DNA of 64,000 nt from Burkholderiales bacterium (GTDB lineage Bacteria; Patescibacteriota; Minisyncoccia; Phycocordibacterales; UBA9973). Made by a program: the position numbers and the translations under genes. Below the pieces are notes generated by a model. It did not search any database and was not told where the DNA came from. It saw only the letters and a list, made by a program, of their open reading frames with translations. The stretch spans positions 207,843 to 271,842 of the forward strand of contig JAMPXW010000001.1 in assembly GCA_023701005.1 (NCBI GenBank), written 5' to 3'. How positions within the stretch are numbered: the stretch's first letter is position 1; the number at the start of each line of letters is the position of its first letter. Positions 60,628 through 62,120 of the stretch are shown here, one piece after another.

Positions 60628-61038
60628 ATGAGGTGCCTCATGGAAATTAATTCAGCGAGAATTCTCGTAGTAGATGATGTTGCAGCTTGCACTGCAATCA
60701 TCATGAAAATTTTAAAAGAAAATTCTTTTAAAAATGTTATATCCGCTTCTAATGGTGTAGATGCTATTAGCTTATGTGCTAATTCTGAGTTTGATTTAGT
60801 ACTAATTGGTCCAGGACGTTCGGTATTAAATAGTTTTGAAACCATCGGCACGATAAGAGACATACCAATACCTCTTTTTAAAAAAATCCCTATCATTGCG
60901 ATGATAAAAGATGAAAAAGATTCAAAAGAAGAAGTTTTATTTGCAGGAGCAACAGACGTTATTTTAAAGCCTATAAAAAAAGAAGATCTTGTAGGCATAT
61001 TAAAAAAATATTTAGAAAAGGAACCTAAGGAAGATTAA
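60628..61038 (+). CDS. Orphan single-domain response regulator (CheY-like receiver)
   Basis: ILVVDDVAACTAIIMKILKE...DLVLIG...K receiver pattern. Confidence 0.65.
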   Translation: MRCLMEINSARILVVDDVAACTAIIMKILKENSFKNVISASNGVDAISLCANSEFDLVLIGPGRSVLNSFETIGTIRDIPIPLFKKIPIIAMIKDEKDSKEEVLFAGATDVILKPIKKEDLVGILKKYLEKEPKED

Positions 61039-61039
61039 C

Positions 61040-61095
61040 TTGGCTCGGTGTGTTTTATGACGCACCGAGCCTTTTTTATTTAAATTTTAATTTTT
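61040..61095. repeat. Left copy of a 56-bp direct repeat; it contains a terminator hairpin (ggctcggtgtgttttatgacgcaccgagcc plus T-run). The right copy is 62065..62120, with 42 nt identical and then 2 mismatches
   Basis: Direct comparison of the two copies in the sequence. Confidence 0.85.
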
Positions 61096-61112
61096 ATAAG
61101 ATATATAATTAT

Positions 61113-61142
61113 CCCCATATACGCCATAGCGTATATGGGGAT
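61113..61142. repeat. Perfect 12-bp-stem palindrome ccccatatacgc-cata-gcgtatatgggg, upstream of the cas2-like gene. A degenerate second copy is at 61557..61586
   Basis: Read from sequence. The second copy is cctcatatcagccatggcgtatacgggg. Confidence 0.7.
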
Positions 61143-61161
61143 TGAGTGATATTATTTATAT

Positions 61162-61548
61162 ATGAGTTTTAAAAGAAAATTATATTATAGAGGAATGGAA
61201 GTGAATTCTTTTGGTATCCCAATTTTTTCACAAGGCAGAAAGAGTCGTTCAAAGATGAAAAACAGAAAGAGAACTTTTTATAATATTGCTTTTTATTCTC
61301 CTTTTAATAAAGATTCTTCAAAAAATTTAATCGTAATGTACGATATTCCTTCTGATAAGAAAAAAGAAAGAGATTGGTTTCGCAGACAATTGATAAAATT
61401 TAATTATATTATGATTCAAAAAAGCGTTTGGGTGGGCCCCTCTCCATTGCCAAAAGATTTTTTAGATTATTTAAAAGAGATAAAGATAGGGGATAACTTT
61501 AAAACATTTAAATTAGCTAAATCTTATACTAATTTTAAAAAAGTTTAA
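61162..61548 (+). CDS. cas2: Cas2-family protein (type-II-like) with an approximately 50-aa N-terminal extension; solo, no cas1/cas9/array in the window
   Basis: NLIVMYDIPSDKKKERDWFRRQLIKFNYIMIQKSVWVG aligns with the S. pyogenes Cas2 core [38 protein letters not shown] (alignment done from memory). Confidence 0.5.
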   Translation: MSFKRKLYYRGMEVNSFGIPIFSQGRKSRSKMKNRKRTFYNIAFYSPFNKDSSKNLIVMYDIPSDKKKERDWFRRQLIKFNYIMIQKSVWVGPSPLPKDFLDYLKEIKIGDNFKTFKLAKSYTNFKKV

Positions 61549-61683
61549 TAATTTAAACTTCCTCATATCAGCCATGGCGTATACGGGGAAGAAGAGATAT
61601 AAACATACAAAACTTGACATGTAAAGAGAGAGAGTATTCTGAGTTAAATTTGTACAAATAAATTTAACTAATTTGAGGTTAGT

Positions 61684-62013
61684 ATGGCCTTATCTGCAAA
61701 TGAACGTGAAGAAGAGTTCGAAAAAGTTCTTCTTATGGGTATTGGATTGCCTTGTCCAAAAAATATGCCTATTAAAGAACTTTCAAAAAAATCCCTTGAG
61801 ATGATAGATAAATTACTATTATCAATGCAAGAGATATTTGATGTTTCTCCTGATAAAGGTGAACAAGTTCGGTTGGCATTTATTATTAGGCAACTTCAAG
61901 AGTTCAAAAAAGAAATAGAAAAAAATGAGTTTTTTGTTTACCTTAGATTTTCTTATTTGGCTGCTTTAAGCCAAGGAATTATGGTATATAAAAGAGAATT
62001 TAAGTTAATCTAA
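61684..62013 (+). CDS. Hypothetical 109-aa protein inside the cassette
   Basis: ORF only; acidic N-terminus; no family recognised. Confidence 0.3.
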   Translation: MALSANEREEEFEKVLLMGIGLPCPKNMPIKELSKKSLEMIDKLLLSMQEIFDVSPDKGEQVRLAFIIRQLQEFKKEIEKNEFFVYLRFSYLAALSQGIMVYKREFKLI

Positions 62014-62064
62014 AGGATTTCATTAAACTTTTTAAAATTGCAGAAGAAATTTTGGATGTTTGAT

Positions 62065-62120
62065 TTGGCTCGGTGTGTTTTATGACGCACCGAGCCTTTT
62101 TTATTTGAATTTTAGTTTTT
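62065..62120. repeat. Right copy of the 56-bp direct repeat and terminator hairpin. Its distal end encodes the last five codons of the convergent 62101..63990 gene
   Basis: Identical to 61040-61081, then near-identical. Confidence 0.85.

Follow-up and report, generated by a model that had tools for sequence, protein, structure and literature searches.

What is a gene for a Cas2-like protein doing among the housekeeping genes of a CPR-type genome? The stretch of DNA analysed here (the window, 64 kb in all) comes from a low-GC genome (~31%), and its content is housekeeping: tRNA synthetases, gyrB, ligase, FtsH, SmpB and type IV pilus genes. Within it, an ATG-to-TAA frame on the + strand (61162–61548) encodes 128 aa. 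A reading made from the sequence only had taken the product for a solo homolog of type II Cas2, and had offered it a role as a toxin or addiction module, perhaps with the 109-aa ORF downstream, or as what is left of a degenerating CRISPR locus. We find that the protein most likely belongs neither to CRISPR-Cas nor to a toxin-antitoxin pair. The description that fits it best is that of a truncated variant, new among PaaX/Cas2-fold regulators, in a very abundant CPR-specific family. The gene is an ordinary member of this large family, and the new feature is the pair of cognate palindromes that flank it.

A Cas2-like domain and its kinship with PaaX

The Cas2 homology proposed from the sequence is borne out by profiles above their cut-offs and by the fold. 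Pfam CRISPR_Cas2 (PF09827) matches significantly at E = 3e-7 (30.9 bits, cut-off 23.8; model positions 3–50 of 74), TIGR01573 scores 30.6 bits (cut-off 24.5; model positions 3–40 of 96), and several PADLOC Cas2 and Cas2_II models match with E-values of ~1e-8 to 1e-6. The claimed resemblance to the N-terminal core of SpCas2 was recovered by phmmer, which aligns SpCas2 (5zyf) residues 5–46 to residues 52–90 with E = 0.44, a pairwise value that is not significant alone. The AF2 model of the 128-aa protein has an overall pLDDT of 74, falling to 49–68 (low confidence) in the N-terminal region. It contains an N-terminal β-hairpin (residues 7–14), a disordered Lys/Arg-rich stretch (residues 27–37) and a β-α-β-β-α-β Cas2-like domain at residues 54–122 (strands 54–60, 83–86, 89–93 and 113–122; helices 67–79 and 98–106). 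The top PDB fold matches of this model are type II-A Cas2 structures (5zyf, 5xvp and 8pk1; E ~1e-2, probability 0.98–1.0), the SpCas2 structure among them, and the VapD structure 3ui3 is also matched.

With CRISPR Cas2, and especially with type II-A Cas2, the protein has in common the ferredoxin-like β-α-β-β-α-β fold, the β1-α1-β2 motif (hhhhYDIP...F+..L...G...Q.SVW) and an invariant Asp closing β1. This residue, D61 (in LIVMYDIP), is the counterpart of the metal-binding Asp of Cas2 and is invariant both in 54 family members and in a mixed alignment of the short and long forms described below. Nuclease activity is reported for both Cas2 and VapD, and with its invariant D61 this protein may have such activity as well. 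Unlike Cas2, however, it has neither cas1 nor an array beside it, in the window or in related loci. Its matches to the Cas2 profiles span just β1-α1-β2(-β3), about residues 56–92 or 56–108, and so reach only about the first half of the Cas2 models. It also differs in its 52 N-terminal residues, which descend from a winged helix, and in a gene that carries its own promoter with cognate palindromes.

The absence of CRISPR-Cas from the window, noted in the sequence-only reading, was confirmed by array scans and by PADLOC. No CRISPR-like array was detected in the 64 kb, either by Tandem Repeats Finder or in a k-mer search for arrays, and none was found in 85 related loci, which together with the window amount to ~706 kb. 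When the 65 window ORFs were compared with PADLOC, no strong Cas1 or Cas9 match was among the 25 families listed of 120, and on the same footing the sole Cas-model match was the 61162–61548 ORF. The suggestion of a degenerating locus did not survive. Decay was rejected on the lack of arrays and recurrent cas neighbors in ~706 kb and on the strong purifying selection on a gene with homologs in at least 1,809 clusters and no recurrent neighbors other than housekeeping genes.

The best Pfam family of the protein is not Cas2 but PaaX_M (PF20803), which covers residues 57–119 with E = 6.2e-13 and 49.1 bits (cut-off 24). PaaX combines a winged helix with a dimerisation motif and a C-terminal domain, and it represses its own promoter via steric hindrance of RNA polymerase (PMC9493321). 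In terms of domain families and structures it corresponds to PF07848 + PF20803 + PF08223 and to PDB 8a39 and 3l09, and it is its central Cas2-like domain, the module through which it dimerises, that our protein matches best in Pfam. Assignment specifically to type II Cas2 is thus disfavored, as PaaX_M (E = 6e-13) beats Cas2 (E = 3e-7) and the long relatives of the protein match PaaX 8a39 best.

Homologous clusters number at least 1,809 at 90% identity, with proteins of 115–140 aa that are 67–90% identical. The clusters with a named source are almost all from Nomurabacteria/Paceibacterota (Paceibacteria), and, unlike PaaX, the family is essentially confined to Paceibacteria. Its naming is split. 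NCBI sources use "CRISPR-associated endonuclease Cas2", because the Cas2 profile scores pass the cut-offs, and JGI uses "PaaX", which leaves more than 1,800 clusters labeled Cas2 by some sources and PaaX by others. Cas2 labels in lineages that are largely without CRISPR-Cas can inflate counts of CRISPR and defense genes. Literature searches combining PaaX, Cas2 and CPR turned up no paper describing the family, which we refer to as mini-PaaX.

More distant relatives were collected in an exhaustive search of 50%-identity representatives. Those at 30%–50% identity are mostly 155–200 aa long, with the homologous part at the C-terminus, and their N-termini give weak winged-helix matches. In the AF2 model of one such long form, P0127 (pLDDT 79), helix 1, a recognition helix, a β-hairpin wing and a fourth helix precede the Cas2-like domain. 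The PDB structure that this model matches best is that of E. coli PaaX (8a39), across both domains and 169 alignment columns. The long forms therefore share with PaaX the layout of a winged helix joined to a Cas2-like domain. Alignment of the short form with the long form reveals that helix 1 has been deleted and that ~27 residues, comprising the C-terminal half of the recognition helix and the wing, have been lost, with a Lys/Arg-rich stretch in their place. The β-hairpin element YYKG..V..FG.P is retained. An intact winged helix is accordingly absent from the window's protein in this alignment, and the lack of helix 1, recognition helix and wing sets it apart from PaaX. The basic N-terminal extension of about 50 residues, which had seemed unusual for Cas2, is real: a basic stretch of ~52 aa is conserved throughout the family, and on the alignment it is the remnant of a winged helix.

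Selection has maintained both parts of the protein. Values of dN/dS are 0.06–0.15 for the whole gene, 0.01–0.07 for the Cas2-like domain and 0.18–0.55 for the N-terminal part, so that both are under purifying selection, which is strong overall. The dimerisation domain of the short form is almost invariant, and its N-terminal region keeps the invariant residues Y9, G18, Y40, F44 and F48. Conservation also bears on the start codon. The start at 61162 is backed by residues 1–11, in which Y9 is invariant across the family and K10 and G11 are nearly so, and by the extended -10 box that ends 6 nt ahead of this ATG. One public gene call (P0001, 117 aa) starts at M12 and is rejected, as the conserved Y9, K10 and G11 lie upstream of it.

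The protein ends after the Cas2-like domain, and PaaX_C (PF08223) has no match in it in Pfam. No paa enzymes appear among the 25 Pfam families listed for the window ORFs. In both respects the family is unlike PaaX, having neither the C-terminal ligand-binding domain nor paa genes, and the 128-aa protein is a short-form member of this Paceibacteria-specific mini-PaaX family without the ligand-binding domain. Some genomes have two or three diverged paralogues (43%–67% identity), in one case with two in tandem, and genome MFUG01 holds two short forms (L028 and L036) together with a long form (L080). The 64-kb window contains neither a second paralogue nor a long form. Of the non-CRISPR relatives seen in this analysis, mini-PaaX comes nearest in sequence to type II-A Cas2. 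The family connects short palindromic repeats with the Cas2 fold and with the dimerisation domain of PaaX, and in this way bears on the origin of Cas2.

Flanking palindromes and the promoter

On either side of the gene lies one copy of a ~30-bp dyad-symmetric site with the core TACGC-CATR-GCGTA (TACGC-CATG-GCGTA). The upstream copy, pal1 (61111–61142; ATCCCCATATACGC-CATA-GCGTATATGGGGAT), is the predicted operator. It has perfect arms of 14 nt around a dyad at 61126|61127 and could form an RNA hairpin of -23.7 kcal/mol. The downstream copy, pal2 (61558–61591; CTTCCTCATATCAGC-CATG-GCGTATACGGGGAAG), is an imperfect copy of pal1 whose left half carries the recurrent TCAGC variant. The dyad of pal2 falls 26–27 nt past the stop codon, and the predicted energy of its RNA hairpin is -12.1 kcal/mol. 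Neither is an ordinary intrinsic terminator, given that neither has a + strand T-run and that canonical T-run terminators lie nearby. Rfam yielded nothing at gathering score over the palindromes and intergenic regions.

These palindromes are closely tied to the gene. If a site is defined by GC-NATN-GC at its centre and by pairing at 9 or more of 12 arm positions, 98 palindromes are found in ~600 kb around 79 loci, and 92 of the 98 are within 150 nt of gene ends, a zone that makes up 4.7% of the DNA. Shuffled sequences yield 0–1. In the 64-kb window the two flanking copies are the sole palindromes of this type. Almost all related loci have the same two-palindrome arrangement, and in most of them the second site is at -8 to +35 nt from the stop. 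The downstream copy is tied to the gene's 3' end, with no fixed distance from any downstream promoter. Upstream and downstream copies are alike within a locus, and the arms differ between loci and between paralogues of one genome.

The two arms of the site covary. For 46 upstream sites the covariation score is 0.371 versus 0.168 in shuffles, a value reached by 0/500 of these, and slid controls score at most 0.19. Symmetric variation is seen at ±6 and at ±9 to ±13 from the dyad. Arms can pair without a mismatch over 17–22 nt, and the outer positions vary between close homologs yet stay complementary. Long arms that covary in this way suggest selection for a hairpin or cruciform rather than for a simple operator. 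A bias toward G-U-compatible mismatches on the + strand, 23 versus 9 upstream and 12 versus 8 downstream, is weak. Residues ~30–48 of the protein differ between site classes; this covariation of protein and site is confounded by phylogeny, and we do not rely on it.

The position of pal1 relative to the start of the gene is also constrained. An extended -10 element on the + strand (61147–61155), inferred from a TG at 61147–61148 and TATTAT at 61150–61155, has its hexamer at +24 to +29 relative to the dyad; the start codon at 61162 comes 6 nt past this TG-n-TATTAT box. In nearly all short-form loci, and in at least one long-form locus, TG-n-TATAAT is likewise found at +24 to +29 from the dyad with the ATG ~6–8 nt on, and the spacing from dyad to -10 is constant in most of the 54 related loci with an upstream site. 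A palindrome so placed would be centred on the -35 position, given a dyad-aligned -10 at +24 to +29. A two-hexamer promoter scan did not report the extended -10, and misses this promoter because there is no -35 hexamer. Since the ATG follows 6 nt after the -10 box and no Shine-Dalgarno sequence precedes it, the mRNA is predicted to be leaderless, and probably is. An intrinsic terminator belonging to the upstream response-regulator gene (61042–61078, + strand) precedes pal1, which is therefore probably not transcribed from upstream. Several other loci also have an intrinsic terminator upstream of pal1.

Metagenome contigs were scanned with GCYATRGCGTATATGKGK, and among the matches listed are full family-type palindromes with no mini-PaaX gene within 1–5 kb. 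Such orphan sites lie after ~570-aa zinc-ribbon proteins, near RelE/ParE-type pairs, or as two classes in tandem, and they are often at gene 3' ends, typically just past stop codons or terminators. A few palindromes also occur in frame inside coding sequence: within the mini-PaaX gene of loci L042 and L064, at the exact point where the winged helix was deleted, and in a loop of the RNase HI gene at L080. Distal copies amount to ~1 per 100–200 kb of flanking DNA. In a 598-kb contig with the gene, the pattern was found, among the matches listed, only at the gene.

A probable autoregulator or a possible hairpin-binding protein

On balance we favor, as somewhat probable, a reading in which the product is an autoregulated dimeric DNA-binding protein that forms a self-contained unit with its own palindromes. 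The protein would dimerise through its Cas2-like domain, as Cas2 and PaaX do, and the dimer would bind the palindrome at the -35 position of its own promoter. Once bound, it would occlude RNA polymerase and repress its own gene, as PaaX does at Px (PMC9493321). The dyad-symmetric site overlaps the gene's own promoter, which fits such autorepression and recalls PaaX (PMC9493321). The sites themselves are different: that of PaaX is TGATTC-N27-GAATCA, whereas here a compact 30-bp palindrome is present in two copies flanking the gene. The downstream copy could serve in looping that strengthens repression, could act as a roadblock or 3' hairpin, or could place the variable downstream gene under the same control. 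Counting against this reading is the short form's lack of a recognition helix and a wing, with which DNA is usually read, together with the low model confidence of its N-terminal region. The long complementary arms, the tie of the second copy to the gene's 3' end, the palindromes away from any mini-PaaX gene and the invariant D61 also weigh against it. With the canonical DNA-reading helix lost, contacts would have to come from the retained β-hairpin, the basic arm, or α1 (ERDWFRR) of the Cas2-like domain.

Few regulators are recognisable in CPR bacteria, and the mini-PaaX family is abundant and lineage-specific, with a defined DNA element and promoter geometry. It may offer a tractable entry to transcription control in uncultivated ultra-small bacteria.

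The palindromes allow another interpretation, which we regard as rather unlikely: that the Cas2-fold protein is associated with hairpins, and binds, nicks or processes the palindromes as cruciforms, single-stranded DNA or RNA hairpins. The comparison is with REP elements and RAYT, or with IS200 ends and TnpA, and the palindromes would be semi-mobile and maintained or spread by the protein. In those systems, as here, a small ferredoxin-fold protein is encoded between imperfect palindromes cognate to it, and, as with REP elements, there are extra palindrome copies at the 3' ends of other genes. The arms speak for such a role, being perfect for up to 21–22 nt in the longest cases and accompanied by many compensatory variants, as does the short form itself, which has lost the winged helix and kept the palindromes. 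The orphan copies after stops and terminators, sometimes near toxin-antitoxin pairs, the in-frame copies at L042, L064 and L080, the variable genes adjoining pal2 and the invariance of D61 would also be in keeping with it. The geometry of pal1 is harder to accommodate: it lies between a terminator and a -10 with constant spacing to the promoter, an indication that it acts there as duplex DNA, and a fixed promoter position for the upstream copy is unlike REP/RAYT. Copies are also very few, compared with the tens to hundreds of REP/RAYT: the window has none beyond the flanking two, and the 598-kb contig has them, among the matches listed, at the gene only. The paralogues are old (43%–67% identity) and in conserved slots, with no sign of recent transposition. 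Nor does the protein resemble RAYT or TnpA in its residues. It contains no histidine at all, hence no HUH motif, and there is no catalytic Tyr signature. The G-U bias expected to be informative on RNA hairpins is the weak one given above.

A stronger form of the same idea, which we think distinctly unlikely, holds that the palindromes are a small family of semi-mobile hairpin elements and that the Cas2-fold protein is their cognate binding or processing factor. If true, CPR bacteria would have their own counterpart to REP-RAYT, with a Cas2/PaaX scaffold in the place of the HUH transposase, and a Cas2 homolog and palindromic repeats would be brought together outside CRISPR. It would explain the covarying long arms, the copy at each end of the gene, and the orphan copies at 3' ends and near toxin-antitoxin pairs. 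The in-frame copies, the copy at the junction of winged-helix loss and the hypervariable slot by pal2 would be explained as well.

The loss of DNA-reading elements can be turned around to propose that the short form is an anti-regulator, heterodimerising with full-length winged-helix paralogues and titrating or modifying them, with the paralogue rather than the short form binding the palindromes. We consider this quite improbable. Helix 1 and the recognition helix and wing are indeed gone from a protein whose dimerisation domain is almost unchanged, and MFUG01 carries short and long forms side by side. In that genome, however, the palindrome class of the short forms is distinct from that of the long form. 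Purifying selection on the N-terminal region (dN/dS 0.18–0.55), with its five invariant residues, argues the same way, as does the lack of a long-form paralogue in the window, which covers ~64 kb of the genome.

Genomic slots and neighboring genes

The surroundings of the gene are those of a vertically stable chromosomal gene. Its closest relatives (75%–89% identity) occupy the same slot, after L32, nusB/NUDIX, rnc and smc and before a convergent PGA_cap/peptidase gene. The family as a whole has at least three recurrent slots, all of them within housekeeping operons: after rnc-smc, between rpsG and fusA, and after folD/ftsW-like genes. Among related loci there is no recurrent neighbor other than ribosomal and housekeeping genes.

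Downstream of pal2 the picture is different at each locus. The 109-aa ORF of the window (orf109; 61684–62013, + strand) has no Pfam, NCBIfam or PADLOC family and no homolog in 84 related loci. It occupies a variable slot: the ORF after the gene differs in each syntenic relative, with 109 aa here and 63, 134, 88, 113 or 264 aa elsewhere. There is no conserved adjacent gene that could be a toxin-antitoxin partner, and the suggested toxin or addiction pair with orf109 is made unlikely by its presence in 0/84 related loci at a position that varies. As for the idea that the protein is a solo nuclease of the Cas2/VapD type, serving as toxin or addiction module with or without orf109, or else a last CRISPR-Cas remnant, the Cas2 profiles above cut-offs, the fold in common with VapD/Cas2-like toxins (3ui3), the invariant D61 and the missing CRISPR-Cas context are all compatible with it, but it is very improbable in view of the lack of a conserved partner, a stable position in housekeeping operon slots unlike that of VapD toxins, strong purifying selection, ~706 kb without an array or a recurrent cas neighbor, the absence of IMG/VR relatives and PHROG matches, and a domain architecture and best fold match of the family that point to PaaX. 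An origin in a phage or defense island was likewise rejected, as no relatives were found in IMG/VR viral contigs, PHROG gave no match and PADLOC gave just partial Cas2 matches.

One feature of the window might suggest recent movement. A response-regulator gene at 60628–61038 is found only in this window when compared with related loci, and there is a 67-nt direct repeat made up of the 3' end of this gene plus its terminator. The first copy (61029–61095) and the second (62054–62120, + strand) bracket pal1, the gene, pal2 and orf109. The view of the gene as part of a recently mobile cassette, here one bounded by the 67-nt repeats, does not hold, as close relatives without the repeats or the response regulator keep the gene in the same slot, after rnc-smc and before PGA_cap.

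Sequence turnover around the Cas2-like gene in the window

The open reading frame directly 3' of pal2, the palindrome downstream of the Cas2-like gene (window positions 61558–61591), is not the same in any otherwise syntenic relative. In the window it is orf109 (61684–62013), encoding a soluble protein of 109 aa; at the related loci L001, L002, L006, L007 and L013 its place is taken by membrane-type proteins of 63, 134, 88 or 113 aa, or by a 264-aa methyltransferase-like protein. The position adjoining the palindrome is a hypervariable gene slot. The window also carries a 67-nt direct repeat (61029–61095 and 62054–62120; copies 91% identical, with 42 nt exact), which comprises the final codons of a response-regulator gene and that gene's intrinsic terminator. 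Between the two copies lie the upstream palindrome pal1 (61111–61142), the Cas2-like gene (61162–61548), pal2 and orf109. Because the response-regulator gene (60628–61038) has no counterpart in any related locus, we conclude that the window locus underwent a local insertion or duplication.

Paralogues and palindrome classes

Two short-form paralogues, which lack helix 1 and the recognition helix and wing, stand in tandem ~1.1 kb apart in L047 (1212–1559 and 2689–3078), and each has a separate palindrome class (ATCTACGC-TATA versus ATATACGC-CATG). In L085 and L087 a long-form paralogue, in which a winged helix precedes the Cas2-like domain, occupies the interval from rpsL-rpsG to fusA. It shares this interval with variable ORFs that carry no annotation; one of them matches the RNA polymerase alpha C-terminal domain. 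This region is another variable island within a core operon.

Palindromes within coding sequence

In-frame copies of the palindrome occur within coding sequence at L042:4091, L064:4094 and L080:6803. The first two lie inside the Cas2-like gene itself, where they encode KSEVRHGEL at the exact point where the recognition helix and wing are missing from short forms. The third belongs to an RNase HI gene, where it encodes the loop segment KTHFSHGLN; the corresponding residues of the L077 orthologue are unrelated. Many homologues, including P0050, P0112 and P0061, end in ...SISAMA; their palindrome, TCA GCC ATG GCG TAA, includes the stop codon, and the coding sequence and the downstream site therefore overlap at the 3' end of the gene. 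Upstream of other loci the asymmetric TCAGC half-site appears again, with its orientation unchanged.

Palindromes apart from the Cas2-like gene

Full family-type palindromes with no Cas2-like gene within 1–5 kb were found in metagenome contigs (L108:5128, L116:8662, L120:12885, L130:3249, L136:4110, L113:1676 and L110:10504), usually after a terminator or stop codon and before a small gene. Two of them adjoin RelE/ParE-type toxin-antitoxin pairs, and L110 has tandem palindromes of two different classes. In five contigs (L122:12576, L125:1538, L132:2008, L153:364 and L167:4709) a palindrome immediately follows the stop codon of homologous ~560–595-aa proteins that begin with a CxxC...FYEK...CPxCR zinc-ribbon motif, a recurrent association. 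A further palindrome, ATACGC-TATA-GCGTAT, occurs twice in tandem at L092:2403 (Ga0172376_10000640), beside ORFs for a HolC-like protein and HisS that do not appear CPR-like; its occurrence here may be due to chance, or the motif may extend beyond CPR.
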